DNA from: Methanobacteriota archaeon
GTDB taxonomy: Archaea; Thermoplasmatota; Poseidoniia; Poseidoniales; Poseidoniaceae
Direction: 5' to 3'
NCBI GenBank assembly: GCA_018659375.1
Contig: JABJMO010000064.1
Coordinates: forward strand, 3,876 to 67,875
DNA: 64,000 nt
Of the stretch, positions 12,666-42,946 are shown piece after piece. The first letter of the stretch is position 1. Each line of letters opens with the position of its first letter. Both the position numbers and the translations under genes were made by a program. The notes beneath the pieces are model-generated. The model had not been told where the DNA came from, did not search any database, and saw only the letters and a list, made by a program, of their open reading frames with translations.

Positions 12666-12803
12666 AGAGTCACCACTGCTCAATCACGAGCAATGCTCCC
12701 TATCGGCGGGGGTAATTGAAGGTTCGGAAATGCCATTGACATGGACTGAACTTGCACATAATTCAACCGATTAACACAATACCTACTGCCCTCTAGGGGA
12801 AAC

Positions 12804-13598: not shown

Positions 13599-13744
13599 TA
13601 AAAAATATTTAACCTCGAATTGGTGTCCAATTGGGTATTGAAAATCAAATCCATAAGGCATACTTATGAGGGGGACTCGGACTGGGAGAGTCATCGCGCA
13701 TTTGTCTTTATTGGGATTTGCCGACTTGTAGGAGGAATAAACAG

Positions 13745-20646: not shown

Positions 20647-20915
20647 TAATGTCACCTTTAACCACACCAACAGAAGTTTGTTTATAATTTTAGCCATTAA
20701 TCCACCTTATAGTTACATTAAGTTACGTATTTCTATTGGAAAAGTACGGAGTAACTTACAACCAGTCATGACAAGTTCACTTTTTACACTTAATTTAGTA
20801 CCTAAATGTAACGACTTAGTAAAAATGGAGCAACTATTATATCAGCGACCGGCGTCCTGTAGTTTAGTGGCAATTATCCAATGGATATGCGCTACGTGAC
20901 AAAGAGATGATATTG

Positions 20916-21245
20916 ATGAAAACAACCAGAATCCGTGAAAAGATAAAGAAATTTTTAGGCGACCGACCCCGAAACACTGCGGAGATTTTGGAACACATCA
21001 ATAGCACAATGCGCCATGGAACCACCAGTCAGCAACTTGGTAATGTACTATCAAAGGACAAAGACATTGTCAAAGTCGGCTACATCAAGCGATCTGGAAT
21101 ACTCTCAGGCGGCTACGACATCTGCGAATGGGCAACAAGAATATGGGTTTCTTCAAACTGCCCTGGGTGGGAAGAAGGCACACCAATTATTATTGACCAA
21201 GAAGGCAATGTAACAACTGGCTCCCCGCCAGAAAATAAATACTGA
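20916..21245 (+). CDS. DUF3860-like small wHTH DNA-binding protein
   Basis: PRNTAEILEHINSTMRHGTTSQQLGNVLSKD motif, recognised from Thermoplasmata/MGII proteins. Confidence 0.7.
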   Translation: MKTTRIREKIKKFLGDRPRNTAEILEHINSTMRHGTTSQQLGNVLSKDKDIVKVGYIKRSGILSGGYDICEWATRIWVSSNCPGWEEGTPIIIDQEGNVTTGSPPENKY

Positions 21246-21247
21246 TT

Positions 21248-22297
21248 TTAACCAGTCAGTATTCTATGAAAATGGTGTACACCCATCTCCATTTTTGGAG
21301 AGTAGCGCCCCCTATCATACAAACTTGATTTCATCCCTCTAAAACAAGCTTCAACTATCTCTTGGTCTTGTAACTCCACTAAGTCAATATCCCCTCCAGC
21401 ACCTAAACCAACTTTGGTTTGGTCTACAACCAAACCGTGATATTGTACAATAGTCTTACCACATCCATTTGGATTAACAAGATTTATCGATAAACCCCAA
21501 GGATAAAAATTGAGCATTAGGTTCGGAAATAGCCACCAGTAATATGCGGCGATTGATTTCCCATAATCTACATGACTCTCCGGCAAGTCAAATTTTGCCT
21601 CACCCTCTTTAGCAAATCCGATCTGTAGCACACCATTATCGAATAATTGTGTTTCATAAGATGAATAGTCTAGTACTGAATTAAGTTCGGTGTGAACGAA
21701 TGGTATGTGAAACCCTTCCAGAAAATTATCAACATATAACATCCAATTAGTGTCAAGATGATGGGTTTTGTCAAGTTTTGAGTCAAATTGGAAATCTTCA
21801 ATATTAAGGAAATTCATTCTGTCTTCAACAACTGAAATGAATGATTCAAATGAATTATCATTTTCTAAATTGGCAAATAGTAGACCCTGCCAATTTTTTA
21901 CTTTGCTAGAAGGCAAGTCATCTGAACTTGATGGGAAATTTTTTGCTTGATCAAACTCTGGCATATACTTTAGTTTCCCACAAAGATTGAATGTCCTTCC
22001 ATGATATGGGCATTTTATTGTTCGACGATTAGTTGAAACTTCTGACAAAATCATACCCCGATGAGTACAAACATTAGATAGACAGTGAAATTCACCAGAT
22101 TCATCTTTTGTAAGCATCATTGGATTATTACCGATTGAAACTGGTATAGTCGTTGAATGTTCCAGCATGGATACATGCCCAACAAAATTCCAAGTCGTAA
22201 AGAATTTCCCTAGTAGTGAATTGTATAACGATTCATCTGTATAGTAGTTCGAAGGTAATGTTTTGGCTTTGGCAATTTCTGGATGAATCACATCCAT
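21248..22297 (-). CDS. Rieske non-heme iron oxygenase alpha subunit (choline monooxygenase / aromatic ring-hydroxylating family)
   Basis: Rieske NVCTHRG..CPYHG; mononuclear Fe DNFLEGFHIPFVH; QD..IVE; E.GVHHFH. Confidence 0.9.
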   Translation of the reverse strand: MDVIHPEIAKAKTLPSNYYTDESLYNSLLGKFFTTWNFVGHVSMLEHSTTIPVSIGNNPMMLTKDESGEFHCLSNVCTHRGMILSEVSTNRRTIKCPYHGRTFNLCGKLKYMPEFDQAKNFPSSSDDLPSSKVKNWQGLLFANLENDNSFESFISVVEDRMNFLNIEDFQFDSKLDKTHHLDTNWMLYVDNFLEGFHIPFVHTELNSVLDYSSYETQLFDNGVLQIGFAKEGEAKFDLPESHVDYGKSIAAYYWWLFPNLMLNFYPWGLSINLVNPNGCGKTIVQYHGLVVDQTKVGLGAGGDIDLVELQDQEIVEACFRGMKSSLYDRGRYSPKMEMGVHHFHRILTG

Positions 22298-22308
22298 AAT
22301 ATCACCAT

Positions 22309-23232
22309 TCAAGAGTGGTAAATCGCCATGGCGTCTTCAACAGACGCTCCTTGACAGATAATTGCGTGAGATGCTGCCGCCATTTTTACTGCTTCTTTGG
22401 TATCCTTTTGATGAATATTTCTGCCGGTGGCTGCACCTCGGCAATTACCAATATTCATTTGCTGCCACAAACGTTCTAGGAACTCATCAGCAGGTAATGT
22501 CCCACCACCTGAACAAATAATACCAGTGCGTCCTGCGGCTTCAACGGCAATTGCTAGTGACTCCGAACGAGACATACCCTCAAATTCAGCTGGATAATTT
22601 ACTTTGGCAAAGTCGGCCCCAATGCATGCCGCTACCCCTGCTGCACCTGAAATCAATTGTGGGTCTTTTTCATTGCCCACTGCAGCACCTCTTGGATACA
22701 TCCAAACAACTGAAATCATGCCAAGTTCGTGTGCTTGGCGAATTAATTGTGCAGCCTCAGACATCATTTCATGCTCGTACTCACTACCGATATAAATTGT
22801 ATAACCGATACCAACCACATTTATTCCATTGTGAACCAAAGACATGACATCATCCATATCCCAAAGTGCTTGAGATACTGGATCTCTTTGTTTAGTTTTA
22901 ACTAAATGAGATTTTGAATTCAACTTGACAAGGTAAGGGATGTCTGGATAATCTCTCGCATATTGAGCAATTAATCCAAGTTGACCTGCAAGTACTCCAA
23001 TAGTTCCTTCCTGATGACATTGATTGCCGATCTCAAATAGATGTGCAGGGTCGTTAGAAGATAGTGGTATTTTTTGACCCCCATCGTAAAAATCGTCATT
23101 GAGATGTTCAATTTTTTGGTCGCAGGCAAATAAGTTCATTCTTCCTGTGCCAGCAGTTGCAGCATCCATATTATCAATGAATGTGTCAATAAGTTCGTCT
23201 GGAACATCTGCTGGAACATTGTATTTTACCAT
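22309..23232 (-). CDS. Class I (DhnA/FbaB-type) fructose-bisphosphate aldolase
   Basis: DQKIEH, VKLN, WMYPRG, GADFAKVNYP (Schiff-base Lys), GRNIHQ. Confidence 0.85.
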   Translation of the reverse strand: MVKYNVPADVPDELIDTFIDNMDAATAGTGRMNLFACDQKIEHLNDDFYDGGQKIPLSSNDPAHLFEIGNQCHQEGTIGVLAGQLGLIAQYARDYPDIPYLVKLNSKSHLVKTKQRDPVSQALWDMDDVMSLVHNGINVVGIGYTIYIGSEYEHEMMSEAAQLIRQAHELGMISVVWMYPRGAAVGNEKDPQLISGAAGVAACIGADFAKVNYPAEFEGMSRSESLAIAVEAAGRTGIICSGGGTLPADEFLERLWQQMNIGNCRGAATGRNIHQKDTKEAVKMAAASHAIICQGASVEDAMAIYHS

Positions 23233-23249
23233 CTCTAACACCGTGTAGA

Positions 23250-24116
23250 TTAGTTGCCAGTAAAGTTAGCTACACGCTTTTCGACATATGCAGCTATTCC
23301 TTCTTTTGCGTCAGTGCTGTTAAACAGTGATGCTTGTAATTCTCTTTCTAATGCAAGATGATACTCGAATGGAATTTCTGGACCCGTTTGTACGGACCTC
23401 TTGATATTTCCAACAGCCTTAACAGCCTTATTTGGCAGAGTAAATTGAGTGCACCAATCGAGCACATCTCTTCTGAAATCTTCTGCTGAGCCTTCCCAAA
23501 TGTGATTGATTAGGTTACAGGATTCTGCATCCTCAAAAGACATCAGTTCACCAGTTACCATCATTTCAAGCGCCTTTGCTTTACCAATTAGTCTAGTTAG
23601 TCTTGCAGTACCACCTGTACCTGCTAGCACACCAAGATTTATTTCAGGTAGTCCAACCTTACCAGCGTTCTTTCTAGCAATTCGAATATCTGCTGCCATG
23701 GCAATTTCCAGTCCTCCACCAACGGCGTGACCGTTGATAGCACAAACAACTAGCTTAGAGGTTTGCTCAAATCTTGAAAGAGTTTCATTGGCGTGAAGAC
23801 AAAAGTTGTACTTGAAACCAGGTGTTACGGAGTTAAGCATCTGAATTGATGCACCAGCAGAAAAGAAAGATGCGCCGTTGCCCGTTAGGACAATACAAGT
23901 AACATCGTCATTGAATCTCGCTTTAACGACAGCCTCATCAATATCCCTCATCATTTCATGAGTGTAGGTGTTTGGCGAGCGGTCATTAGGTCCATCCAAT
24001 GGTTCTCCAGCAGAATTTGATGACAATTCAATTACTGCAATCCCGTTATTTGTGACTCCATAATTGACCAGTTTGTTTGGCATTGGCTCAAGTTTTAATC
24101 CATAAAGGTCGCTCAT
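23250..24116 (-). CDS. Crotonase-family protein resembling the N-terminal domain of BoxC (2,3-epoxybenzoyl-CoA dihydrolase)
   Basis: FFSAGASIQML..FKYNFCLHANET parallels BoxC FCSGANIFML..WKVNFCKFTNET (recalled); GGGLEIAMA, GLPE. Confidence 0.75.
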   Translation of the reverse strand: MSDLYGLKLEPMPNKLVNYGVTNNGIAVIELSSNSAGEPLDGPNDRSPNTYTHEMMRDIDEAVVKARFNDDVTCIVLTGNGASFFSAGASIQMLNSVTPGFKYNFCLHANETLSRFEQTSKLVVCAINGHAVGGGLEIAMAADIRIARKNAGKVGLPEINLGVLAGTGGTARLTRLIGKAKALEMMVTGELMSFEDAESCNLINHIWEGSAEDFRRDVLDWCTQFTLPNKAVKAVGNIKRSVQTGPEIPFEYHLALERELQASLFNSTDAKEGIAAYVEKRVANFTGN

Positions 24117-24156
24117 GTGTCCTGCGAGAATGACTAGCATTATGAATAAATCGCAT

Positions 24157-25410
24157 TCAACTTTCTGGCAAGGATACCTTATCTGAATCTTTAGCGAATG
24201 AAGTTTTTCCACCGCTTTTACGTACACCATTCCACTGACTTTTCACTGCCATTGCCGCCTCAGAAGGCTCCCAATCATCTCTTTTTAGTGACTTTCTAAA
24301 TGGCATTCTTCTAACGCCTCGACCCATTGATTTGGGATCTTTTTTCAACATAAACGGGTTTACAAATCGGTAGAGAATACTCTTGAACAAAGTTGGCCGG
24401 AATAGCTTTCCAATCCAAACCAAACCATCGTTGCGCTTTTTTTGGTCTTTCATCCAGCTCTTGCACATCATTTTGAAGGTTCTGTCACCTACTCTGTTCA
24501 TCAGCCAGCGATTAGCAACACTAGTCTTGACGTAAGGAAGCAATTGTTTTCTAACCTCTTGTTCATAATCACACTCGCCTAGAATATCCTTGGCTGCTAA
24601 TACTCCTGACCAAATAGCCATACGCATACCAAAGCCCCACATGAAGTCCTGCAAGCCGCCCGATTCACCGACATAATATCTGCCATCCTGCAGATAATTA
24701 GCATTAATCGTAAAATCTCCTTTACCGCCAACTCTCTTAATTGGTTGGCGATTAAGTTCAGGGTAGTGCTTATCGTACCAAGCAATGGTTTCGTTAAGAA
24801 ACCGGTCACTTTTTTTCTGCTTGCGCCACAAGCAGGTGCAAATCAATCCTATGCCATCGATAACAATCAGATATGAGTATGCACCTGGGGCAAGTTTGTC
24901 ATTCAATTGGAATGCTATATGATTAGGGTGGTCTGTGTGAAATATTTCACCATATGCAACTGCTGATGTCCCTTTAGGCCCACAAGCGATTATTTGACAA
25001 TCTTCCTCTTTCACTTTAGTTTTGTAATGTATCTTGGCACCAGCAGCTAAGGCTTGACGTTTGATTCCTTGGTCAATAGTGTGGCTTGATGTCCCTCGCT
25101 CAACGATTCGGTAAGAAACTTTGGGACTTCTTGCCTGAGTTATTTCATCGTCGGGATGGATAAGGTCGACTTCGGTGAATTCTGTAGCTTTAAATTCAGA
25201 TGTATCAAAGCCCCATTGTGTCAATTGGTCAAAGAAATCAACATCCATACTCCAATTTTCTAAGGCTTGGAAGTCTCCATCAAATCGAGCACCAGAATCG
25301 TCCCTAATATCATGGACATGAACTTCATGTCCTGCTTTTGCCAGAATTGTTGCTGCTGCTAAACCTGAAAGGCCCGCTCCCATGATATTGATGGGACTTC
25401 GCTCCGCCAT
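24157..25410 (-). CDS. FAD-dependent oxidoreductase (geranylgeranyl-reductase-like)
   Basis: GAGLSGLAAA Rossmann motif; APGAYSY; VGESGGLQDFMWGFGM. Confidence 0.75.
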   Translation of the reverse strand: MAERSPINIMGAGLSGLAAATILAKAGHEVHVHDIRDDSGARFDGDFQALENWSMDVDFFDQLTQWGFDTSEFKATEFTEVDLIHPDDEITQARSPKVSYRIVERGTSSHTIDQGIKRQALAAGAKIHYKTKVKEEDCQIIACGPKGTSAVAYGEIFHTDHPNHIAFQLNDKLAPGAYSYLIVIDGIGLICTCLWRKQKKSDRFLNETIAWYDKHYPELNRQPIKRVGGKGDFTINANYLQDGRYYVGESGGLQDFMWGFGMRMAIWSGVLAAKDILGECDYEQEVRKQLLPYVKTSVANRWLMNRVGDRTFKMMCKSWMKDQKKRNDGLVWIGKLFRPTLFKSILYRFVNPFMLKKDPKSMGRGVRRMPFRKSLKRDDWEPSEAAMAVKSQWNGVRKSGGKTSFAKDSDKVSLPES

Positions 25411-25483
25411 GTACACGGTAACGAGGCGAGAGGTTTGAATGATGCGTTTCCCTCGCTTCACCATGGGCGGAGATATTTTCATC

Positions 25484-25888
25484 ATGGAAGCCCAAAAAAA
25501 TCTAGATCACCAAGGTCTGCTAGATAAGTTAGATTTATCCGGCTGCGGTGCTGTAGTGTCATTTTTAGGCATTACTAGGGGGCATGATGATGGCGTAGAG
25601 ATATATCGTTTAGAATTCGACGCCTGGCAAGATAAGCTCGGCAATGTTCTACATCAATTAGCCGTAACTGCAATCGAAAAATTTGGTATCGCCAAAGTTG
25701 CAATGGCGCATCGCACCGGTCCAGTAAATGTGTCAGAAAATATTGTCTCAATACATGTTGCCAGCCCCCATAGGAAGCAGGCCTTTCAAGCGTGTGAATG
25801 GTTGATAGATGAACTAAAAATTCAAGCACCAATATGGAAAAAAGAAGTTTCCGAACATGGTGAAAAATGGAAAGCAGGATTGGGGTGA
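25484..25888 (+). CDS. moaE: Molybdopterin synthase catalytic subunit
   Basis: GAVVSFLGITR, HRTG, SPHRK.AF, K..APIWKKE. Confidence 0.92.
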   Translation: MEAQKNLDHQGLLDKLDLSGCGAVVSFLGITRGHDDGVEIYRLEFDAWQDKLGNVLHQLAVTAIEKFGIAKVAMAHRTGPVNVSENIVSIHVASPHRKQAFQACEWLIDELKIQAPIWKKEVSEHGEKWKAGLG

Positions 25889-25892
25889 AATT

Positions 25893-26342
25893 GTGGAGAA
25901 AAATATTAGAGCAGTCGTTGACATAACTGAAAAGTTGATAATTAAGAGAACAGCAAAGGCGACTGGACTTCTCAAAATATCGAAAGCTGCTCGAACTGCG
26001 ATTAATAATGATGAGGTCAAAAAGGGCAACGTCATAGAAGCCTCAACTATTGCTGCAATACAAGCGGTAAAAGAAACTCCAAGGATAATTCCCCATTGCC
26101 ACCCAGTACCACTAGAGGGTTGTGATGTTAACTGGAACCTAGATGAAGATGGTCTTCGCTGTGATGTTAGCGTTGTAGCACACTACAAAACAGGCATTGA
26201 GATGGAAGCAATAACCGGAGTGTGTGCTGGCCTATTATGTGCTCTTGACATGATAAAATCATTTGAAAAAGATTCTACAGGACAGTATCCTAATACTGAA
26301 ATTTGTGGTGTAAGAATAATTGAAAAAGTGAAATCAAGTTAA
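25893..26342 (+). CDS. moaC: Cyclic pyranopterin monophosphate synthase
   Basis: VDITEK, KKGNV, IPHCHP, TGIEMEA; GTG start after GGGGTGA. Confidence 0.92.
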   Translation: MEKNIRAVVDITEKLIIKRTAKATGLLKISKAARTAINNDEVKKGNVIEASTIAAIQAVKETPRIIPHCHPVPLEGCDVNWNLDEDGLRCDVSVVAHYKTGIEMEAITGVCAGLLCALDMIKSFEKDSTGQYPNTEICGVRIIEKVKSS

Positions 26343-26390
26343 TTAAAATTGACCGCATCATTCATTGGATGGTCATTACCATAGTGATAC

Positions 26391-27347
26391 ATGGGCAAGG
26401 TATCTGACCTATCTAACCACTTTCTCGACGCCGTGGACATGGCCGCAATAGCAAGTGCAAAATGGCGCGGAAAGGGTGACAAAATGGCTGCTGATGATGC
26501 GGCTGTAGAGGCGATGAGGAGTACTTTTGACAAGGTACCATTCGATGGTCGAGTCGCCATTGGTGAAGGTGAAAGAGATGAAGCACCGATGCTCTTTATT
26601 GGTGAACAACTTGGTTCTGAAATAGGCAATCCACTAGTACCGGCTATCGACATAGCTGTCGACCCGCTTGAATGTACCAATAATTGTGCAGATAACCTAC
26701 CTAATTCAATTGCAGTCCTAGCCGCAGCACCAAGAGGAACTCTGCTCCATGCCCCAGATTGTTACATGGATAAAATTGCCGCTGGGCCAGAGATGGAAGG
26801 CCACATTAGTCTTGATGCAGGGGTTGCATACAACATCGAACAAGTCGCATCTGTGCTAGATAAACCAATTGAAGAAGTTCGTATTATTGCGCTAGATAGA
26901 AAGCGCCATAATGACCTATTCAAGGAGATTAAACAAGTTGGAGCACAACTGCACTTACTTGGAGACGGTGACATCTCGGCTGCGCTATGGGCTGCTAGGC
27001 CAGATGGGGAACATGATATGCTGCTAGGCATCGGAGCCGCACCAGAAGGAGTAATCACTGCAACTGCAATACGTGGAATTGGCGGTGTTTTTGAAGGCCG
27101 ATTAGTGTTTAGATCTGATGAAGAAGAAGCCCGTGCCGAACAAATGATAGATGATGATTTAACCAGGCTTTGGGATGCTAAAGATTTATGTCGCTCAGAT
27201 GACGCAATATTCGTAGCCTCTGGAGTTTGTGATGGCTACCTACCGGGTGTGAAAATTTTGGAAAACGGCGACATGCACACCTATGCAGAACTAATTGATG
27301 TACAAGCAGGCACTTTGACAAGGCATGACCGTATTCACAAACAGTGA
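26391..27347 (+). CDS. glpX: Class II fructose-1,6-bisphosphatase
   Basis: IGEGERDEAPML, DIAVDPLECT, APDCYMDK, DGD, GAAPEGV. Confidence 0.93.
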   Translation: MGKVSDLSNHFLDAVDMAAIASAKWRGKGDKMAADDAAVEAMRSTFDKVPFDGRVAIGEGERDEAPMLFIGEQLGSEIGNPLVPAIDIAVDPLECTNNCADNLPNSIAVLAAAPRGTLLHAPDCYMDKIAAGPEMEGHISLDAGVAYNIEQVASVLDKPIEEVRIIALDRKRHNDLFKEIKQVGAQLHLLGDGDISAALWAARPDGEHDMLLGIGAAPEGVITATAIRGIGGVFEGRLVFRSDEEEARAEQMIDDDLTRLWDAKDLCRSDDAIFVASGVCDGYLPGVKILENGDMHTYAELIDVQAGTLTRHDRIHKQ

Positions 27348-27351
27348 TTAT

Positions 27352-27963
27352 ATGTCGCAAATAGTAAGAATTGAAGTTCGATTACCGGATGGACATTGGG
27401 CTGGCGAAGCTACCCGGGAAAACCCATCCTCCACATTACAGATAATCGAAACCATGCCTCTTGGCAAGGGGAGAGGAACAGCTCAAATTAGTACTGATGA
27501 ACTATTACTAAACCAATTAGAGCATTTATCTAGCGTGGAGTCCGTCAATTTACTTGACGGTAACAAGGCTACAGTGACAATAGCCAGCGGTGGTGGTGGA
27601 TTTATCAAAGCCTTACGCGTTGTTGGCGTAGTCCCAAGAACTCCTTTTGAAGTGATAGATGGGTGGGCTGACTGGACAATACAGTGTTCACCCAGTCAAG
27701 CTAAACAATTAGTCGAGGAAATAAATTCAGACGAGATACCTATGCGTTTGAAGTCAACTCGCTCAAGTGATGATAAACTACTAACTGCAAGACAAACACA
27801 GATTTTTGAATTGGCCAAACGCAGAGGATACTGGAACATACCTAGAGAAATTTCAATCACTCAGTTAGCCGAAATAACCGGTTCCTCCAAATCTACAATC
27901 TCAGTTATGCTTCATGCTATCGAAAGTAAAATAGTGGACACATTTTATGACGAAATTATATAG
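27352..27963 (+). CDS. Archaeal transcription regulator with C-terminal HTH_10 (Bat-type) domain
   Basis: LTARQ..FELA..GYWNIPREISITQLAE..G.SKST.S..L...E.KI. Confidence 0.85.
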   Translation: MSQIVRIEVRLPDGHWAGEATRENPSSTLQIIETMPLGKGRGTAQISTDELLLNQLEHLSSVESVNLLDGNKATVTIASGGGGFIKALRVVGVVPRTPFEVIDGWADWTIQCSPSQAKQLVEEINSDEIPMRLKSTRSSDDKLLTARQTQIFELAKRRGYWNIPREISITQLAEITGSSKSTISVMLHAIESKIVDTFYDEII

Positions 27964-27968
27964 AAATA

Positions 27969-27980
27969 CGAACATGTTCG
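27969..27980. promoter_or_regulatory. Perfect 12-bp palindrome CGAACATGTTCG; candidate operator upstream of the boxB-like gene
   Basis: Seen directly in the 53-bp gap between the regulator and boxB. Confidence 0.45.
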
Positions 27981-28016
27981 CAAAGACAATAAGCAAGACC
28001 CATTCTTGGGAGGGAC

Positions 28017-29177
28017 ATGGACAACCTACCAAACACTTGGGACGAATGGATAACAAATTTTGGCGATTGGCAACAAAGAGTTGGATTCAATCCTGATTGG
28101 TTAGGGGACTTTGAACTCTCAGTTTTGTTTGACTGGGAACGTGCAGGAGATGTAATTGAATTTGGCGACTATGAAGGTCGAGCGAAGTGGGAGAGAGCAC
28201 TTCAGGTACCTCACCAAAGCATGCGAGATGCACTAATTGCGATGATTACTGTTCAAGGAGACACAGAATTTGCATCTGTTGAACAGCAGAGACATCTACT
28301 CGCATCAGCACCCACTGATTACGACAGATATGCTGCTGCTAGAATCATGGCTGAAGAACAGCGCCATGGATGGCAAATGGCCTATCTATTGATGACATAT
28401 TTTGGCCAGCAAGGACGTAGAGAGGCTCAAAAACTACTAGAAAGGAATGCCCAAGACGGCGACCGATTACTTGGTGCTTTCAACCGTCCAATGCCACATT
28501 GGCTCGACTTCTTCTGTTACACTATGTTTGTTGATCGTGACGGTAAATTTCAACTCGGAATGCTATCGACTTCTGCATTCAAACCTCTTGCTGCTTCAAT
28601 GGGACCAATGCTCAAGGAAGAATCATTCCACCTGGGAACTGGTTCCAATGGCCTTAGGAGAATCATCAAGGCTGGTGTTATACCGCTAGATATGCTTCAA
28701 AGGTACATCAATAAATGGGTATCGACCGCTCATGACCTGTTTGGTGTCGATGCTTCATCATCCGCTCATTGGGCGTATGTATGGGGAGTCAAAGGACGCT
28801 GGGACGAACGTAAAAAGCAGGATGCTGGAATTGAGGTTAACAAAGAAGTACTCAATGAAGAAGGTCGTGGACATTACCATGATGAGATTGTCAGAGAAGT
28901 TGAGAAACTTTGTGGCTACTTACCAGAGGGTGTTGAGAAATTGTATGTTCCTCACGAAAACTTCAATCGCGACATCGGGGCTGCCAAAGGCAGTAACTTC
29001 AATGTAGACGGAACTCCTTTCCAAGGTAACGACGACGATTGGCAAGCTTATCTACACGAAGTAATGCCTAGGAAACAAGACGAAATAGACCTCAAGGAAT
29101 TATTCAATCAAGAGTGGATTGCTAACAAACCAATGTCTACAAGACAAATCGATTCTGGCATTGGCGCCAGCGCTTGA
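28017..29177 (+). CDS. boxB: BoxB-like diiron aryl-CoA epoxidase (benzoyl-CoA 2,3-epoxidase family)
   Basis: VQGDTEFASVEQQRHL, EEQRH, LLER, RLLGAFN, W.DFF.YT.FVDRDGKFQL, EESFH: BoxB signature with diiron ligands present. Confidence 0.82.
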   Translation: MDNLPNTWDEWITNFGDWQQRVGFNPDWLGDFELSVLFDWERAGDVIEFGDYEGRAKWERALQVPHQSMRDALIAMITVQGDTEFASVEQQRHLLASAPTDYDRYAAARIMAEEQRHGWQMAYLLMTYFGQQGRREAQKLLERNAQDGDRLLGAFNRPMPHWLDFFCYTMFVDRDGKFQLGMLSTSAFKPLAASMGPMLKEESFHLGTGSNGLRRIIKAGVIPLDMLQRYINKWVSTAHDLFGVDASSSAHWAYVWGVKGRWDERKKQDAGIEVNKEVLNEEGRGHYHDEIVREVEKLCGYLPEGVEKLYVPHENFNRDIGAAKGSNFNVDGTPFQGNDDDWQAYLHEVMPRKQDEIDLKELFNQEWIANKPMSTRQIDSGIGASA

Positions 29178-29194
29178 ATCTTTACGGTGGTCAC

Positions 29195-29731
29195 ATGATC
29201 CCAGTCTCGCTGTACGGTATCAACGTCGAAAGATGTGAAAATTTCTATGAACAATTACCCACTTTAGTTGCTGACAGTATTGATGACGAAGATTATTCCA
29301 GAACTTTGTTTGCTATACAAGATAAAGCATCTATGGAACACATTCAGGTCGCAGAAGAATGGTCAAACCGAAAGCCCTTTGCCTTCCCAGAAGAAATAGT
29401 CAACGAGATAGAAATGATTATTCGAACTGTTTCATATCCGGATGTGGCCCTGCTAGAACATTTGCTTACCATTGACGAAATAGACACACAACGAATTTCT
29501 GAATGGATGCATTTTTCAACAAACCTGTACCCAATCTACAGCCAAAAAGCCTGTCAAGCGCTAACAGATTTGGGACTAGAAACCCCGTTCAATCTAGGAG
29601 ACATGGCTAGTTATGGCCTGTACGTCTCGCGCATCGAAGGACTCAAAATGTATGCTCCGGCAAAGGGATTACCGGAAATAGGATTACCTCGATCAAGAAT
29701 GCTCCAATTAGGTTTGGAGCGGTTTGAATGA
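29195..29731 (+). CDS. Hypothetical protein, probably cotranscribed with boxB
   Basis: ORF with GGTGG RBS; ISEWMHF..LYPIYS..ACQAL is weakly reminiscent of HhH-glycosylase-like proteins. Confidence 0.6.
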   Translation: MIPVSLYGINVERCENFYEQLPTLVADSIDDEDYSRTLFAIQDKASMEHIQVAEEWSNRKPFAFPEEIVNEIEMIIRTVSYPDVALLEHLLTIDEIDTQRISEWMHFSTNLYPIYSQKACQALTDLGLETPFNLGDMASYGLYVSRIEGLKMYAPAKGLPEIGLPRSRMLQLGLERFE

Positions 29732-30651
29732 GTAGTTTAGCAATTCATTTAAAATTATTTACAGTTGCAGTAATATGGGGATTTGGTTGGCCTGCAGGCA
29801 GAGTTGTAGCTGGTGACGTTCTACCATTTACCGCATCTTGGATTCGTTATATCATAGCCACATTCTGCTTTTTGGCTTATCTTAAATTTTCAAAGCAGTG
29901 GATGTTGCCAAATAAATCAGAGTGGAAGATATTATTCTTGATTGGGTTTTTCTCAACTTGTGTCTATCAAGCATTCTTTATGTTTGGAATGCAATATACC
30001 GCAGCTGGTGATGCTTCACTCATGATTACCTTCAATCCTATTTTTACTGCAATATTAGCAGTTATATTCCTCAAGGAAAGTATGCATAGAAATTTAATCA
30101 CAGGATTATTGATGGGGATTACCGGGGTTGGAATATTATTTTACTACTCACCCAATGTGGACATAGAGTTTGTCGATCGTGCTATTGGGGACTTGCTGAT
30201 TGCAGGTGCAGCCCTTGCATGGGCTTGTAACACGATTTTAATGAAAAAAGCCATGACTGAACCTAAACATAATTCCACTAAGCCATTAAATCCGCTAGAA
30301 TTAACCGTCTGGTCATCCGTAGCGGGTCTGATATTATTGACTCCAATAATGGCTGCTGAAACTGCCACACGAGGATTTATTTTGCCAAGTCTGGATGGCT
30401 GGATAGGAATAGTGTTTCTAGCAATCTTTTCTACCGTTGTTGCGTATGTGTGGTTCGCTGATGGAATAATCAAGATCGGTGCCTCGATGAGTGCTTTGTA
30501 TGTTTACCTAGTTCCGCCGTTTGGAATCTTGGGAGGATACCTATTGCTTGGTGAAAAACTTGGATTGTCATTAGCATTTGCTTTCGTTCTTATTACCGGT
30601 GGCGTTTTTGTCGCCCAGATAAAAACTAAAAACGACAAGCAAGCATCATGA
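29728..30651 (+). CDS. EamA/DMT-family transporter
   Basis: IWG..W, RY, 10 TM, PIFTAILA..FLKE, LLGEKL. Confidence 0.9.
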   Translation: MSSLAIHLKLFTVAVIWGFGWPAGRVVAGDVLPFTASWIRYIIATFCFLAYLKFSKQWMLPNKSEWKILFLIGFFSTCVYQAFFMFGMQYTAAGDASLMITFNPIFTAILAVIFLKESMHRNLITGLLMGITGVGILFYYSPNVDIEFVDRAIGDLLIAGAALAWACNTILMKKAMTEPKHNSTKPLNPLELTVWSSVAGLILLTPIMAAETATRGFILPSLDGWIGIVFLAIFSTVVAYVWFADGIIKIGASMSALYVYLVPPFGILGGYLLLGEKLGLSLAFAFVLITGGVFVAQIKTKNDKQAS

Positions 30652-30673
30652 AGTTTAACCTATTGGGTTGACC

Positions 30674-31561
30674 ATGTCGATTAAGACCGTGACCGTTATT
30701 GGCGCTGGAACAATGGGTGCTGGTATTGCCCAGGTTTGTGCTCAAAGTGGATGGCAAACTAACCTCTTTGATGCATTTCCGGAGGGCTTAGAAAAGGGCA
30801 TGAAAACTATAGATTCATTTTGGCAAAAGGGGATTGCAAGAGGGAAAACAACCCAGCAACAAAAACAAGATTGGTCAGAAAATATAACTCAATTTACCGA
30901 TATGAAAGCAGCGGTAAGACAAGCTGATTTAGTTATTGAAGCAGTACCAGAGATTCCAAAATTAAAATCTGAAATCTTTGAGCAACTAGGAAAATACACC
31001 AATCAAAGTTGCATACTAGCAACTAACACATCATCTCTCTCAATTGCTGATATAGCTACTGCTTCAGGATGTCCAGAAAGAGTGATTGGTATGCATTTTT
31101 TTAATCCCGTACCAATTATGAAATTGTTGGAGTTAGTTAGACACGATTTGTGTTCACAGAAAACCATTGAAATTGCCCAACAAGCTGGTATGCAAATGAA
31201 TAAAACCACAATTTTAGTAAATAACATCCCAGGCTTCGCTACCTCAAGATTAGGAGTTGTGTTAGGAAATGAGGCCATTCGAATGCTTGCAGATGGAGTT
31301 GCAAGCGCAAAAGATATCGATACAGCAATGGTGCTAGGTTACAAACACCCGATGGGCCCGTTGGCTCTAACTGATTTAGTTGGATTGGATGTTAGGAGAG
31401 ATATTCTAAGAAATCTACAAAAATCATTTGATGATGATTCATATGCTCCTCACCCATTAATGGAAAAATTAGTTGCCTCTGGTCGCCTTGGCAAAAAGAC
31501 TGGCAAGGGGATTTATGATTGGTCTTCTGGTGAAGCAGAAGAGTGCCAACTTCCAAAGTGA
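30674..31561 (+). CDS. 3-hydroxyacyl-CoA dehydrogenase (PaaH/Hbd-like)
   Basis: GAGTMGAGIAQ, IEAVPE, TNTSSL, GMHFFNP, HPMGPL.L.D.VGLD, G.KTG.G.Y. Confidence 0.92.
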   Translation: MSIKTVTVIGAGTMGAGIAQVCAQSGWQTNLFDAFPEGLEKGMKTIDSFWQKGIARGKTTQQQKQDWSENITQFTDMKAAVRQADLVIEAVPEIPKLKSEIFEQLGKYTNQSCILATNTSSLSIADIATASGCPERVIGMHFFNPVPIMKLLELVRHDLCSQKTIEIAQQAGMQMNKTTILVNNIPGFATSRLGVVLGNEAIRMLADGVASAKDIDTAMVLGYKHPMGPLALTDLVGLDVRRDILRNLQKSFDDDSYAPHPLMEKLVASGRLGKKTGKGIYDWSSGEAEECQLPK

Positions 31562-32344
31562 TTACTCAAAGTTTGGTTTACGCTTTTCAATAAATGCCGT
31601 TACGCCTTCTTTGAAGGCATCAGTAGTTCCAGCTGCTTCAATCAATGTACGTTCATGTTTTAGATGAATCTCGAAATCTTGCACAGACTGAACATCGAGT
31701 AGATGCTTAGTTGCCTCTTTGGTATGATTACCCCACTGGGACCATTTGAGTGCAAGTTCTAGCGCAGAATCAAGCAGAGAATCTTGTTCGACAATAGTAT
31801 CAATTGCCCCTACTTGATTGGCTTTTTCTGCTGACCAAATTTCGTTTTCAAAGAAAAATCGTCTTGCGGTTTGGTCGCCGACCAAACGAGGCAGCAACCA
31901 AGTTGTCCCTCCATCAGGCGAAAGTCCCATACCAGAGTACGAAGCAGCCATCTTGGCACTAGGTGAGCCAATTCGCACATCACATGCCAAAGCTAGACCA
32001 AGTCCGCCCCCTGCACATGCACCGTTGAGAGCAGCCACACAAATGGTAGGTGATTGGCGCATTCGTACAAGTAAGGGATGGAGCACTCCAGTAAGATCTC
32101 GAATTAATTGAGGAGCATCCCCGTCTTCAATTGCCTTAGCAAATGCGTTGATATCTGCACCAGCAGAGAAAAATTTGCCCTCACCGGTTAGTACCATTGC
32201 CCGAACGCTTGTGTTGGTTAACCCGTCATCTATCGCTTTGGCGATTTCAGGCAAAAACGTTCTTGAAAATGATTGTGTTGCTGACTGGCCAGAAAACCGA
32301 ATCAAGCGAACTCCATGACCCATATCGCTGAATGAAACACTCAT
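31562..32344 (-). CDS. Enoyl-CoA hydratase/isomerase (PaaG-like)
   Basis: FSAGAD, NGACAGGGLGLALACD, GLSPDGGTTWLLPRLVG (Asp-type motif as in PaaG). Confidence 0.85.
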   Translation of the reverse strand: MSVSFSDMGHGVRLIRFSGQSATQSFSRTFLPEIAKAIDDGLTNTSVRAMVLTGEGKFFSAGADINAFAKAIEDGDAPQLIRDLTGVLHPLLVRMRQSPTICVAALNGACAGGGLGLALACDVRIGSPSAKMAASYSGMGLSPDGGTTWLLPRLVGDQTARRFFFENEIWSAEKANQVGAIDTIVEQDSLLDSALELALKWSQWGNHTKEATKHLLDVQSVQDFEIHLKHERTLIEAAGTTDAFKEGVTAFIEKRKPNFE

Positions 32345-32353
32345 TTTGACACC

Positions 32354-33790
32354 TCACAATTTGATATTGACGTTCTTGACCTTGGTGTAAAATCTTAGAG
32401 CGTCCTTACTTTGCTCTATACCAATACCAGATTTCTTCCATCCAGTAAACGCAGTTTGGGGGAAGGTAATTGGGTATTCATTAATTGAAATCATTCCTGA
32501 TTCTAAATCTCTAGCGAGTTTATGAGCTCGGCTTAGATTGTTGGTCCAAATCCCATTTAGTAAACCAAAATCAGAATGATTGGCAAGTTCTAATGCCTCT
32601 GCTTCTGTCGAAAATTTAGTCACAGACAGAACTGGGCCAAATAATTCATCATTGAATAATGAGTTATCCGCTTCGATTCCAGTAACAACGGTTGCTTCCA
32701 TAAAAGCACCTTCTCCATCTACTGCATTACCACCACAAACAACCTTGCCGCCTTGTGAGAGGCCTAAAGCTAATTTTTCTAGCACTTCACTCCTATGGCT
32801 AGTGTGTACTAGGCTGCCGATACGCACCCCTTCAGCCATTCCTGGCCCGACTTTCCATTTACTTACTTCAGCAACGACCGCATCTACTAATTCATCGTGA
32901 ACCTCTTCATGGACAATCAATCTAGAACCTGCCCAGCACATTTGTCCAGCATTCATGAAAATACCAAAACAAATCGCTTTAGCGGCATATTTTAAATTCG
33001 CATCTGGGAATACAATATTGGCCCCCTTGCCTCCAAGTTCAAGAGTAACTGGTGTCAGATTATCACTAGCTTTTGCCATTACAGTTCTACCTGTTGGCAC
33101 ACCTCCAGTCAGTACCACTCCATCCACGCCTGGGTGACCTGCAAGAGCATCACCAATCAAACCTCCAGAACCGGTTATTACTTGCAAAACCCCATTTGGC
33201 AGGCCTACATCTGCTTCTTCCATTTTCTTCATCCATGCTAACAGAGAAAGTGGAGTCCATGATGCAGGCTTAGCGATTACCGTACAGCCTGAGGCTAATG
33301 CTGGAGCTATGGAACGAAGAGCTAGTTGGAGAGGGAAATTCCACGGGACAATGTGTGCGGTCACCCCAAGTGGTTGGCGTAGTGTGTAATTTAGACGATT
33401 ACCCGGAACTGGTATTGTTGAGCCTTCAATTTTGTCTGAAAGACCTGCGAAGTACTCTAATGTCCATGCACCATATCTTATCTCTGATAGGGCTTCACGA
33501 AAGGTTTTCCCATTATTTTCAGATTCTATTTTGGCTAATTCTTTTGCTGCACCATATGTAGCTGCTGCCATTTTATTTAGAATTCTACCTCGTTGTGCTG
33601 GATCTATGTTCTTCCATTGAGAACTAACTAAAGCATCCCTAGATGCTGAAACACAACGGTTTACATCATTTAATGACGCTTTTGGAACCCGTGTAATGGT
33701 TTCACCTGTTGCGGGGTTTATTGCTTCGCTATAATCGCCATTTTCAGAACTAGTCCATTCGCCTGCGATGTACATCTCTTCTTCGCTCAT
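32354..33790 (-). CDS. NAD(P)-dependent aldehyde dehydrogenase
   Basis: PWNFP, LELGGK, GQMC (catalytic Cys), ELFGPV, G.K.SG.G. Confidence 0.93.
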   Translation of the reverse strand: MSEEEMYIAGEWTSSENGDYSEAINPATGETITRVPKASLNDVNRCVSASRDALVSSQWKNIDPAQRGRILNKMAAATYGAAKELAKIESENNGKTFREALSEIRYGAWTLEYFAGLSDKIEGSTIPVPGNRLNYTLRQPLGVTAHIVPWNFPLQLALRSIAPALASGCTVIAKPASWTPLSLLAWMKKMEEADVGLPNGVLQVITGSGGLIGDALAGHPGVDGVVLTGGVPTGRTVMAKASDNLTPVTLELGGKGANIVFPDANLKYAAKAICFGIFMNAGQMCWAGSRLIVHEEVHDELVDAVVAEVSKWKVGPGMAEGVRIGSLVHTSHRSEVLEKLALGLSQGGKVVCGGNAVDGEGAFMEATVVTGIEADNSLFNDELFGPVLSVTKFSTEAEALELANHSDFGLLNGIWTNNLSRAHKLARDLESGMISINEYPITFPQTAFTGWKKSGIGIEQSKDALRFYTKVKNVNIKL

Positions 33791-33906
33791 AAACCGTCCA
33801 TGAAGTGACCGTTCAAAGGTGTTCGCCTCACAATCAAGATTAGCAATTCGCCCATATCTGAGTTTTTCCATGATAAGTATATTTGACAGATTGTCCTACA
33901 AGACAC

Positions 33907-37071: not shown

Positions 37072-37080
37072 TTTTTCACC

Positions 37081-38100: not shown

Positions 38101-38115
38101 AATTGTATCCCTCTA

Positions 38116-39648: not shown

Positions 39649-39739
39649 ACCATTACCTCCCGCCGATGCATTCAACGACATGCATCGGACAACTATAACA
39701 CTTCGGTGAAAACACTGTATGAAATGGCCGCACTAGTAA

Positions 39740-42861: not shown

Positions 42862-42946
42862 ATATCTTCTAGAATGTCCTATTCTATGTAATATTGGATT
42901 AAGCCATAATCGAATAAACCTTCAAGGTGATTGCCTTGGCAAGGTT

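Follow-up and report, generated by a model that had tools for sequence, protein, structure and literature searches.

A short BoxB-family diiron oxygenase and a candidate aryl-CoA epoxidation route in MGII archaea

Could MGII, which are abundant ocean archaea, oxidize and open aromatic rings? In bacteria, BoxABC epoxidize benzoyl-CoA with O2 and cleave its ring, and the product is then processed by beta-oxidation. The initial annotation of a 64,000-nucleotide stretch of Poseidoniales DNA (the window) proposed that positions 21248–33790 encode a rearranged Box/Paa hybrid pathway built around a BoxB-like diiron epoxidase. Based on ORFs, Pfam, and NCBIfam, every gene in this proposal was recovered at or near its assigned place. 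The same interval also includes genes for MoaE, MoaC, and GlpX, a Rieske oxygenase alpha-like gene (21248–22312), a DeoC-type aldolase gene (22309–23241), and the genes for the FAD protein and the 178-aa protein described below, none of which had been listed.

The central protein is a short diiron acyl-CoA oxygenase of the BoxB family (386 aa; 28017–29177, plus strand), with the motifs DTE, EEQRH, DRD, and EESFH all present in its translation, as initially described, and a predicted epoxidase activity. BoxB is the oxygenase of the benzoyl-CoA 2,3-epoxidase BoxAB of Azoarcus evansii (PDB 3PER/3PM5; TIGR03225). The 386-aa protein scored 220.7 bits against TIGR03225, under half of the curated cut-off (499.1), 59.1 bits against PF05138 (cut-off 28.5), to which the oxygenase of E. 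coli K-12 PaaABCE also belongs, and 40.5 bits against the PaaA model TIGR02156 (cut-off 280). Among solved structures, BoxB 3PER matched at 182 bits and PaaA at 28–29 bits, while the second-best relative, PDB 4MUD (235 aa; 71 bits over residues 61–217), has the same diiron core but is much shorter and more distant. Entered under the title ‘ring oxydation complex/phenylacetic acid degradation related protein’, 4MUD has, to our knowledge, no assigned function. Homology to BoxB, within the same diiron four-helix family, covers nearly the full length of the archaeal protein, although BoxB measures ~475 aa, and the archaeal form, 89 aa shorter, lacks ~42 N-terminal and ~33 C-terminal residues along with internal segments. 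Across 365 columns, the protein is 40% identical to a canonical representative of BoxB, itself 78% identical to an annotated boxB with boxC, boxA, and benzoate-CoA ligase as neighbors; its identity to PaaA is 24.6%.

Of 7785 candidate proteins, 4751 matched at E ≤ 0.001, and close homologs in the thousands indicate that the ORFs of this cluster are real genes rather than chance. Within the PaaA/BoxB family, the oxygenase belongs on the BoxB side, in line with the initial annotation, but it lies outside the canonical BoxB clade (clade support 100/99). Canonical BoxB or PaaA membership was ruled out, as the protein scored below both cut-offs and fell outside the BoxB clade. Residue roles described for the BoxB ligands and pocket in PMC5489048 were transferred by alignment to 3PER and other family members: all six iron ligands (E120, E150, H153, D211, E240, and H243) are kept, as are five of the seven benzoyl-pocket residues (Q116, T119, S123, F193, and F203). 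At pocket position T210, none of the 36 short forms has Thr and 32 carry V or I, and F206 is replaced by Y in MGIIa. Judged from its sequence, the 386-aa protein is thus a true BoxB relative with an intact diiron site.

Several enzymes of CoA-ester metabolism lie around this gene. ECH1 (288 aa; 23250–24116, minus strand; PF00378, 154.5 bits) is a candidate ring-opening hydrolase in which both catalytic glutamates are present, as in the BoxC N-domain and PaaF. The crotonase initially described as BoxC-N-like is real, with two glutamates and local motifs common to the BoxC N-domain, yet the likeness is weak: ECH1 scored 75.3 bits against the BoxC model TIGR03222 (cut-off 712.3) versus 173.7 bits against generic enoyl-CoA hydratase models, and it has a single crotonase domain where BoxC (~555 aa) has two. 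A BoxC query found ECH1 as its best match in the genome (34.7% over 167 aa of the catalytic N-domain). The expected PaaG-like isomerase corresponds to ECH2 (31562–32344, minus strand), a second crotonase with a PaaG-like residue pattern and, like PaaG, no catalytic glutamate, which could also be oxepin-CoA-hydrolase-like. Adjoining and co-directional with ECH2, an aldehyde dehydrogenase (ALDH; 32354–33871, minus strand; PF00171, 519 bits) with a candidate BoxD-like role stayed below every equivalog cut-off (best, BADH, 447 bits vs 669); indeed, no protein of the cluster reached a Box or Paa equivalog cut-off. A 3-hydroxyacyl-CoA dehydrogenase (HCDH; 30668–31561, plus strand; PF02737, 201 bits; PF00725, 111 bits), with a putative PaaH-like role, is the genome's best match to the HCDH of the bacterial cluster described below (52%). 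Unlinked in this genome, the two-Glu crotonase ECH3 (42800–43789, plus strand; PF00378, 183.5 bits) is a candidate PaaF-like hydratase and the best match to both E. coli PaaF (34%) and the bacterial cluster's second hydratase (41%).

The remaining neighbors are less easily read. A 178-aa protein (29195–29731, plus strand) belongs to no known family, with no Pfam or NCBIfam match and no conserved Cys; its structural model (pLDDT 87.5) was closest in fold to the HhH-GPD glycosylase 3n0u, with a Z of 8.6 across 156 residues, a middling score where helical proteins are compared. The stop of its gene overlaps the start of an EamA/DMT transporter gene (29728–30651, plus strand; PF00892, 150 bits) inserted in the operon, mostly in MGIIa. 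A putative HTH_10 regulator (27325–27963, plus strand; PF04967, 46.7 bits) lies upstream of the oxygenase, and a FAD protein of geranylgeranyl-reductase/PHBH fold is encoded at 24157–25464 (minus strand; PF13450, 27.8 bits; model pLDDT 75.8; best Foldseek match 3oz2, E 5e-16). A CysJ-like NADPH diflavin reductase (10872–12683, minus strand; Flavodoxin, FAD_binding_1, NAD_binding_1) is a weak candidate electron donor, with 531.5 bits against TIGR01931 (cut-off 668) and the top BoxA match, in the FNR part only (31.7%).

Across Poseidoniales, the oxygenase is a single-copy core gene, detected in 119 of 121 genomes and kept in genomes of 1.2–1.3 Mb, and ECH1 is equally frequent (119/121). Such universality means that the oxygenase is not an occasional extra capability. 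It also speaks to some degree against a peripheral role in aromatic catabolism, for which core status is unusual. The genes had been described as dispersed, which is true of MGIIa only; in MGIIb they form one tight operon (FAD protein, ECH1, oxygenase, 178-aa gene, HCDH) with ECH1 directly upstream of the oxygenase. Among 31 archaeal loci with ≥4 kb flanks, HCDH was present in 31, always downstream and co-directional, ECH1 in 23, ECH2 in 20 (within 6 kb), and ALDH in 19 (beside ECH2). The 178-aa gene adjoins the oxygenase co-directionally in all 31 of these loci, and in 48 of 49 archaeal loci overall. Other components are more variable: the ALDH position by ECH2 is occupied by two non-orthologous types across MGII (32–33% identical), EamA/DMT occurs in 22/49 loci, HTH_10 in 25/49 (≤70 nt upstream in MGIIa loci), and the diflavin reductase 2.2–2.7 kb upstream of the oxygenase in 3/49. 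The FAD protein, found in 55 of 61 genomes and in none from two genera that have the oxygenase, is a frequent but dispensable neighbor. ECH3 adjoins ALDH in some MGIIb loci, and no thiolase linked to the cluster was found in MGII.

Short oxygenases 51–55% identical to the archaeal ones, with the same V/I signature at position 210, are also encoded in bacteria. CoA-ester enzymes accompany the oxygenase throughout the order, as the initial annotation requires, and the bacterial phyla show this association independently, which makes it conserved in two domains of life. Of 30 bacterial loci, 17 (from Gemmatimonadota, Acidoferrales, and other groups) have a co-directional ECH1 ortholog (56–64% identical), and 16 have a downstream, co-directional HCDH. 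In Gemmatimonadota and Acidobacteriota, the companions include an ECH1 ortholog, ALDH (which follows ECH1 in bacteria), a PaaG-like isomerase, a hydratase, HCDH, and a 3-oxoadipyl-CoA-thiolase-like gene. The gene order at one Gemmatimonadota locus is TetR, ECH1, ALDH, thiolase, Glu-less ECH, oxygenase, GDPD, HCDH, ECH, and Amidohydro_2; the thiolase there comes closest to 3-oxoadipyl-CoA thiolase (541 bits against a cut-off of 605), and the Glu-less ECH to PaaG (239 bits, cut-off 345). Operons of Gemmatimonadota and Acidoferrales share ECH1, HCDH, and ALDH with the archaeal cluster. The bacterial operons differ from it by TetR, an in-cluster thiolase, GDPD, and Amidohydro_2, or by a NuoE/F-like reductase, whereas the 178-aa protein, FAD protein, EamA, and HTH_10 were found in 0 of the 30 bacterial loci. 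In 10 of 11 bacterial loci without an ECH or HCDH neighbor, the oxygenase is followed by NuoE-like 2Fe-2S and NuoF-like FMN/4Fe-4S genes, placed as a reductase would be in these Binatia-type loci, and both genomes of this type that were searched (2/2) encode an ECH1 ortholog (55%) elsewhere, followed by ALDH. Neither this pair nor the archaeal 178-aa protein is the usual company of BoxB. The Binatia-type context itself (ptsP upstream, aat downstream) is not catabolic. No experimental study of short BoxB-type bacterial operons was found in the literature searched.

Taken together, we consider it slightly better than an even chance that the cluster encodes a stripped-down, O2-dependent route of aryl-CoA epoxidation and ring cleavage around the short BoxB-family enzyme. 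With two electrons from a donor other than BoxA, and O2, this enzyme would convert a benzoyl-CoA-like thioester, the substrate we infer, to its ring epoxide. The single-domain, two-Glu ECH1 would then open the epoxide/oxepin hydrolytically (the BoxC role), ALDH would oxidize the resulting semialdehyde (the BoxD role), the Glu-less ECH2 would move the double bond as PaaG does, and ECH3 as hydratase, HCDH, and an unlinked thiolase could complete beta-oxidation to succinyl-CoA and acetyl-CoA. The 178-aa partner may be a cofactor-less effector or a bridging subunit. As described in PMC4498308, only the N-domain of BoxC contains an active center, and BoxC lifts the inhibition of BoxB by its product. 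The pocket changes at 210 and 206, an ECH1 without the second BoxC domain, the non-orthologous ALDHs, the lack of an MGII-linked thiolase, the absence of the FAD protein from two genera, and the Binatia-type housekeeping context all count against this reading.

Of the Box/Paa hybrid first proposed, the BoxB-side oxygenase and its linked CoA-ester enzymes stand, whereas the expected partners were not found. BoxA, BoxC (at E ≤ 1e-40, with a model that recovered a known box plasmid at 975 bits), and benzoate-CoA ligase above cut-off were each found in 0 of 121 Poseidoniales genomes, and BLASTP recovered no PaaB, PaaC, PaaE, or PaaK from the genome (90.65% complete). The aryl-CoA ligase sought there was likewise not found: the genome has one AMP-forming ligase, which is FadD-like, no ADP-forming acyl-CoA synthetase, and a single CaiB-like CoA-transferase, and these gaps in the supply of an aryl-CoA count against the proposed route.

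It is possible, although unlikely, that the diiron enzyme instead hydroxylates, epoxidizes, or desaturates a non-aromatic acyl- or enoyl-CoA within the core metabolism (lipids or beta-oxidation) that is a known trait of MGII, with the crotonases and HCDH processing the product. The core status of both the oxygenase and ECH1, the lone FadD-like ligase, and the housekeeping neighbors at Binatia-type loci would all fit. So would the fatty-acid degradation genes noted for all MGII genera in PMC6461757, and a 3-hydroxyacyl-CoA dehydrogenase, whichever paralog it may be, that is one of the six non-ribosomal genes with high transcript levels in three MGII MAGs (PMC9723583). Nevertheless, the pocket that receives the aromatic group in BoxB is nearly intact, the conserved ECH1–ALDH pair implies an aldehyde intermediate, and the bacterial set of PaaG-like isomerase, ALDH, and 3-oxoadipyl-CoA-thiolase-like protein is what one would expect downstream of a cleaved ring rather than for ordinary fatty acids.

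Less probable still is the same kind of route acting on phenylacetyl-CoA or another arylacetyl-CoA, derived from aromatic amino acids in these peptide-feeding archaea. The Paa lower pathway likewise sends the product of a CoA-ester epoxidase through a crotonase isomerase, ALDH, hydratase, HCDH, and thiolase, and ECH2 and the co-directional ALDH next to it could represent a PaaZ split in two, one protein acting as crotonase-type oxepin-CoA hydrolase and the other as semialdehyde dehydrogenase, which would make the pathway Paa-like rather than Box-like. ECH2 scores highest against the model for alternative-type oxepin-CoA hydrolase (169.9 bits, 166.1 bits in MGIIb; cut-off 300), ahead of PaaG (150.3 bits, cut-off 345). 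A core gene suits amino-acid catabolism better than xenobiotic use, Rinke et al. (PMC6461757) report genes for amino-acid degradation in every genus, and E. coli PaaA also has V at 210. A search of the genome for homogentisate dioxygenase found none, so that Phe/Tyr would have to pass through a different ring-cleavage route. However, the oxygenase is far nearer to BoxB than to PaaA in both model and structure comparisons, and its pocket, including the thioester-binding Gln116, is BoxB-like, whereas PaaA departs at 116, 119, 123, and 203. BoxB does not accept phenylacetyl-CoA (PMC4498308), and no indolepyruvate oxidoreductase scored above cut-off in the genome, which also lacked hits to PaaK and the other Paa parts searched.

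Finally, that the neighborhood merely reflects inherited gene order, with the oxygenase acting alone on an unrelated task amid ordinary beta-oxidation genes, is very unlikely: MoaE, MoaC, GlpX, and pilus genes are equally syntenic across the order, ALDH type and FAD protein vary, and co-occurrence of two universal genes cannot discriminate within the order, but the association recurs in unrelated bacterial phyla in another gene order, ECH1 moved directly next to the oxygenase in MGIIb, and archaeal–bacterial identity is unusually high, in parallel, for both proteins.

The genes also appear in RNA data. ECH1 is covered by contigs from four RNA libraries and the oxygenase by contigs from three of these (X1–X3), one contig running through the entire oxygenase gene and on into that of the 178-aa protein; such contigs establish presence in the libraries and cannot prove transcription. 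MGII boxB is listed among highly expressed genes in PMC5069720. Overall, the shortened oxygenase occurs in nearly all relatives of this archaeon, and since helper enzymes adjoin it, MGII probably degrades aromatic acids in an unstudied way.

The initial annotation placed a dispersed, Box-like aryl-CoA epoxidation pathway at 21248–33790, and every gene it listed was recovered there. These comprise a 386-aa PaaA_PaaC-family diiron protein (28017–29177, + strand; hereafter the oxygenase) and a crotonase, ECH2 (31562–32344, −), along with a 288-aa crotonase, ECH1 (23250–24116, −), an aldehyde dehydrogenase (ALDH; 32354–33871, −), a 3-hydroxyacyl-CoA dehydrogenase (HCDH; 30668–31561, +), an EamA transporter (29728–30651, +), and an HTH_10 protein (27325–27963, +), identified through ORF calling with Pfam and NCBIfam. 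The iron-ligand motifs quoted for the diiron protein were likewise found in its translation. Absent from that list were a Rieske oxygenase alpha-like gene (21248–22312, −), an FAD protein (24157–25464, −), and a 178-aa gene of no known family (29195–29731, +), and genes for a DeoC-type aldolase, MoaE, MoaC, and GlpX also lie unnamed within the interval. From HTH_10 through HCDH, all genes occupy one strand, with gaps or overlaps of ≤54 bases in the ORF call. A promoter and terminator scan of 27200–31800 returned only chance-level matches, using bacterial models that are ill-suited to archaea.

The oxygenase belongs to the PaaA_PaaC superfamily (PF05138, 59.1 bits for a gathering cut-off of 28.5), and this genome contains no second PF05138 gene. 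By sequence comparison, it is much closer to BoxB, the oxygenase of the benzoyl-CoA (Box) pathway, than to PaaA of the phenylacetyl-CoA (Paa) pathway: it obtained 220.7 bits with the BoxB model TIGR03225 (197.5 bits in a whole-genome search) versus 40.5 bits with the PaaA model TIGR02156, where the cut-off is 280, and among PDB sequences 182 bits with BoxB 3PER versus 28–29 bits with PaaA structures. The BoxB score is nevertheless less than half the cut-off of 499.1 and covers only profile positions 69–326 of 471. Alignment with a canonical BoxB representative of 475 aa gave 40% identity over 365 columns; this representative is itself 78% identical to an annotated boxB located between boxC and boxA with an adjacent benzoate-CoA ligase. 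Compared to it, the oxygenase is 89 aa shorter, missing ~42 N-terminal and ~33 C-terminal residues as well as internal segments. The phylogeny suggested by the initial annotation, here a maximum-likelihood tree of 43 rows, gathered the Marine Group II (MGII) oxygenases in their own clade (100/98) with Thermoplasmata as sister, while the five canonical BoxB rows, including the annotated boxB, formed a separate clade (100/99) amid bacterial short forms; the great length of the branches leading to PaaA and PaaC leaves the root unsure. The protein is thus on the BoxB side by score but outside canonical BoxB, a distinction also drawn from its length and the lack of BoxA and BoxC partners.

The diiron site is intact. 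Based on the residue roles described in PMC5489048, mapped through PDB and family alignments, all six diiron ligands (E120, E150, H153, D211, E240, and H243) are present in the oxygenase and in 35 of 36 short-form rows. Five of seven benzoyl-pocket residues (Q116, T119, S123, F193, and F203) are identical, and the other two are substituted (F206 to Y, T210 to V). Thr at position 210 is missing from all 36 short-form rows, 32 of which have V or I there, whereas all five long forms keep it. One 367-aa short-form relative (P0192, a cluster representative) has five of the six iron ligands replaced and, by analogy with PaaC and PaaA, may be a non-catalytic paralogue.

Alignment of the crotonases delineated three types common to archaea and bacteria. 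ECH1 retains both hydratase Glu residues, aligned with those of PaaF and of the BoxC N-domain, with which it also has local motifs in common. Its likeness to BoxC is otherwise weak: with TIGR03222 it obtained 75.3 bits over positions 9–175 (cut-off 712.3), and its 288 aa form a single domain where BoxC has two crotonase domains. ECH2, its orthologue in MGIIb, and the bacterial crotonase adjoining the oxygenase lack both Glu residues, like E. coli PaaG. As a PaaG-like isomerase, ECH2 thus has the expected fold without the hydratase residues, but its 150.3 bits fall short of the PaaG cut-off (TIGR02280, 345.15), and a model of alternative-type oxepin-CoA hydrolases scored higher (169.9 bits, cut-off 300). 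ECH3 (42800–43789, +) and its bacterial counterpart are ordinary two-Glu hydratases. PMC4498308 reports that catalysis by BoxC resides in its N-domain alone, where two Glu occupy the same positions as in PaaF. The paper also describes BoxC as co-purifying with BoxB, whose product inhibition it relieves, BoxB as a monomer, and the action of BoxA as transient. Catalysis confined to the N-domain, a monomeric BoxB, and a transient BoxA make it plausible that a single-domain protein stands in for BoxC and that the reductase can be exchanged.

The mechanism we favor, if only by a modest measure, is an aryl-CoA (benzoyl-CoA-like) epoxidation and ring-opening route in seven steps. The short oxygenase would epoxidise a benzoyl-CoA-like thioester, ECH1 would open the ring, and an ALDH would oxidise the semialdehyde; the product would then be isomerised by ECH2, hydrated by ECH3, oxidised by HCDH, and cleaved by an unlinked thiolase. 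The family placement of the oxygenase, its intact site, the conserved gene association, and the presence in RNA libraries are observed; the chemical steps themselves are proposed.

Of 121 Poseidoniales genomes sampled, 119 carry the oxygenase, almost always as a single copy; they represent all 21 genera and include genomes of 1.2–1.3 Mb. ECH1 was likewise found in 119 of 121. In the two genomes without the oxygenase, ECH1 is retained and lies 4.1 and 5.2 kb from where a contig starts; in the two without ECH1, the oxygenase is retained, at distances of 550 and 740 bases. Since the remaining gene lies near a contig end in all four cases, these misses look like assembly breaks, and a co-loss test is uninformative. 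Both genes are thus effectively universal, so that the co-occurrence across Poseidoniales proposed as a check is observed yet cannot discriminate between readings. Beyond the order, a search of cluster representatives identified 864 clusters at 50% identity (E ≤ 0.001), and a scan of one genome per species yielded bacterial short forms 51–55% identical to the oxygenase in Gemmatimonadota, Acidoferrales and other Acidobacteriota, Binatia, "Deltaproteobacteria", Thermodesulfobacteriota, and a Udaeobacter. Within an "uncultured Rhodobiaceae bacterium" MAG, one 2.7-kb contig (L060), with an 82% identical MGII oxygenase and HTH_10 and 178-aa neighbours, is probably archaeal and mis-binned.

The core-gene status of the oxygenase, together with its housekeeping context in Binatia-type bacteria, is among the main facts against the aryl-CoA reading. 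Both could be accommodated if the cluster instead oxidised a non-aromatic acyl-CoA within core lipid metabolism, an explanation that we consider unlikely.

The third main fact against the aryl-CoA reading is that we found no aryl-CoA ligase, a search for which the initial annotation had called. No benzoate-CoA ligase scored above cut-off in any of the 121 genomes, and in this genome (90.65% complete) we found one AMP-forming ligase, FadD-like, one CoA-transferase, CaiB-like, and no ADP-forming acyl-CoA synthetase. The reductase BoxA and the two-domain dihydrolase BoxC were likewise detected in none of the 121 genomes (E ≤ 1e-40; BoxC positive control, 975 bits). Phenylacetyl-CoA derived from aromatic amino acids would be another candidate substrate, with ECH2 and the ALDH acting as a split PaaZ. 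The oxepin-CoA hydrolase match of ECH2 is compatible with such a role; however, this genome yielded no PaaB, PaaC, PaaE, or PaaK (for the first three, E. coli queries, BLASTP, E ≤ 1e-3, all ORFs ≥60 aa) and no IOR above cut-off, and we regard this substrate as quite unlikely. Homogentisate dioxygenase was not found in this genome. An aromatic ammonia-lyase was considered as a source of cinnamate and rejected, the sole match being a histidine ammonia-lyase above the HutH cut-off.

As to the electron donor, BoxA is best matched in this genome by the FNR portion of a CysJ-like protein (69.8 bits). No sulfite reductase haem subunit was noticed near this CysJ-like NADPH diflavin reductase (10872–12683, −; 531.5 bits, cut-off 668), and of 49 loci only three, all MGIIa, have a counterpart close to the cluster, located 2.2–2.7 kb upstream of the oxygenase. 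For the FAD protein, the structure model and a fold search indicate a geranylgeranyl-reductase or PHBH-type fold; its match among PDB sequences is limited to the dinucleotide-binding start, and its matches in the Atlas are generic flavoprotein clusters. Six of 61 genomes yielded no copy of it, and because these misses cover all sampled members of two genera that retain the oxygenase, we rejected it as an obligate reductase. No NuoF-like reductase was detected by BLASTP in this genome.

Gene order differs between the two MGII groups. In MGIIb, the FAD protein, ECH1, the oxygenase, the 178-aa gene, and HCDH form, in this order, one tight operon, adjoined by ECH2, an ALDH, and sometimes ECH3. In MGIIa, to which this genome belongs, a block including MoaE, MoaC, GlpX, and HTH_10 stands between the ECH1 and FAD protein genes on one side and the remaining genes on the other, and EamA is inserted behind the 178-aa gene. 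The pathway is thus dispersed in MGIIa, as initially described, but not in MGIIb. The 178-aa gene adjoins the oxygenase in 48 of 49 archaeal loci, and among the 31 with ≥4 kb on both sides, those with a given neighbour within 6 kb numbered 31 for both the 178-aa gene and HCDH, 23 for ECH1, 20 for both the FAD protein and ECH2, and 19 for ALDH. The ALDH beside ECH2 is of two non-orthologous types depending on MGII lineage (~505 and ~472 aa, 32–33% identical; L029, L033, and L034). Archaeal synteny alone is weak evidence because unrelated genes are equally syntenic.

Bacterial loci supply evidence independent of the archaea. An ECH1 orthologue (56–64% identity, compared to only about 30–35% between ECH1 and other crotonases) lies within 4 kb of the oxygenase and on the same strand in 17 of 30 bacterial loci; two others have upstream flanks that are too short, and 11 have no crotonase or HCDH neighbour. 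In one Gemmatimonadota locus, the order is TetR, ECH1, ALDH, thiolase, ECH, oxygenase, GDPD, HCDH, ECH, and Amidohydro_2, where the thiolase is nearest to 3-oxoadipyl-CoA thiolase (541 bits, cut-off 605, above other thiolase models) and the ECH adjoining the oxygenase is nearest to PaaG (239 bits, cut-off 345). That the archaeal neighbourhood reflects mere synteny, as the equally syntenic unrelated genes might suggest, is very improbable in view of this association in bacteria. In 10 of the 11 loci without crotonase or HCDH (the flank of the 11th being <1 kb), the oxygenase is followed by a 107-aa NuoE-like [2Fe-2S] gene and a NuoF-like FMN/[4Fe-4S] gene, an arrangement that would be expected of a dedicated NADH-dependent reductase. 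Both searched genomes of this type encode an ECH1 orthologue (55%) elsewhere, followed by an ALDH. In Binatia-type loci (L105, L117, L119, L129, and similar), the oxygenase has a GAF-domain PtsP (enzyme I-Ntr type, ~800 aa) on one side and the NuoE/F-like pair on the other, with a Leu/Phe-tRNA protein transferase on the opposite strand.

The 178-aa protein yielded a confident all-helical model (pLDDT 87.5) whose best fold matches are HhH-GPD DNA glycosylases (3n0u, Z 8.6 over 156 residues, a middling value for helical proteins, then Z ≤ 6.3). Foldseek against the PDB returned nothing at E ≤ 0.001, a profile search of PDB sequences only chance-level homeodomain rows, and the ESM Atlas only the protein's own archaeal clusters. 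It has no conserved Cys, and might conceivably act as a cofactor-less effector or bridging subunit. A predicted complex with the oxygenase scored 0.02 (mark, 0.32), which bears neither for nor against such a role. In an Acidoferrales locus (L107; 6546–7076 and 9275–10079), a uracil-DNA-glycosylase-family gene lies between ECH1 and the next crotonase, and two small ORFs behind the oxygenase look rhodanese-like and ArsC-type by translation; this second DNA-glycosylase-like fold is curious given the model of the archaeal protein.

Contigs from RNA libraries (four libraries from four studies, ≥95% likeness) covered ECH1 in all four runs and the oxygenase in three (X1, X2, and X3). The oxygenase is covered in full by a single 1388-base contig that continues into the 178-aa gene, and a second contig joins the latter gene to EamA. 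These contigs indicate neither expression levels nor single transcripts, and may include DNA carry-over; similarly, the zero cover of bin 30114–30547 in all four runs proves nothing. PMC5069720 names MGII boxB as one of the genes highly expressed in the Red Sea, and PMC9723583 lists a 3-hydroxyacyl-CoA dehydrogenase, not necessarily the paralogue of this cluster, among six highly transcribed non-ribosomal genes of three MGII MAGs.

Several other features of the window were recorded. The Rieske alpha-like gene (Rieske, 70.6 bits; Ring_hydroxyl_A, 78.4 bits; best NCBIfam match GbcA, 98 bits for a cut-off of 670) may be a feeder oxygenase or a coincidence; 10 of 49 archaeal loci, from both MGIIa and MGIIb, contain a relative (48–54% identity, and one 94% copy) no more than 6 kb from the short oxygenase, in varying relative positions. 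Beside it, a DUF3860 gene (20907–21245, +; 117.5 bits) is duplicated in tandem in several MGIIb loci. At 35458–39681 (−), two T2SSF-family genes and a T2SSE-type ATPase resemble the assembly cluster of an archaeal type IV pilus or an archaellum-like structure, and their synteny with the oxygenase region extends throughout the order. An Orc1/Cdc6 gene is found at 13718–14986 (+), large ORFs at 18127–20697 (−) and 40385–42082 (−), of 856 and 565 aa, have no Pfam match, and another at 2–4411 (−) encodes at least 1470 aa.

Automatic database labels for short forms, either boxB ("benzoyl-CoA 2,3-dioxygenase component B") or "PaaI", overstate present knowledge. The one-line mention in PMC5069720 is the sole link between boxB and MGII found in our full-text searches, the main text of Rinke et al. 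(PMC6461757) contains no "aromatic", "benzo", or "phenylacet", and our literature search found no study of the short BoxB-type family. To judge from gene neighbourhoods, this family may comprise BoxB-type epoxidases with quite different putative partners, including NuoE/F-like reductases, a single-domain crotonase, and a small 178-aa protein, and we know of no characterised member among the 864 clusters.

MGII are among the most abundant planktonic archaea and, to our knowledge, have never been cultured; genome-based inference points to proteins and lipids as their carbon sources. A CoA-dependent oxygenase pathway that is universal and apparently expressed would extend this diet to aromatic rings or to another O2-requiring substrate, and the pathway hypothesis offers a concrete, testable enzyme. 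More tentatively, and with a probability well below even, all MGII may run a core, expressed, O2-dependent aryl-CoA ring cleavage through a short BoxB-type epoxidase with swapped partners, namely a single-domain protein in place of BoxC, a new 178-aa subunit without cofactor and with a DNA-glycosylase-like fold, and a donor other than BoxA, burning aromatic amino-acid side chains or algal phenolics. If so, MGII would represent a large unrecognised sink of aromatic dissolved organic matter in the surface ocean.
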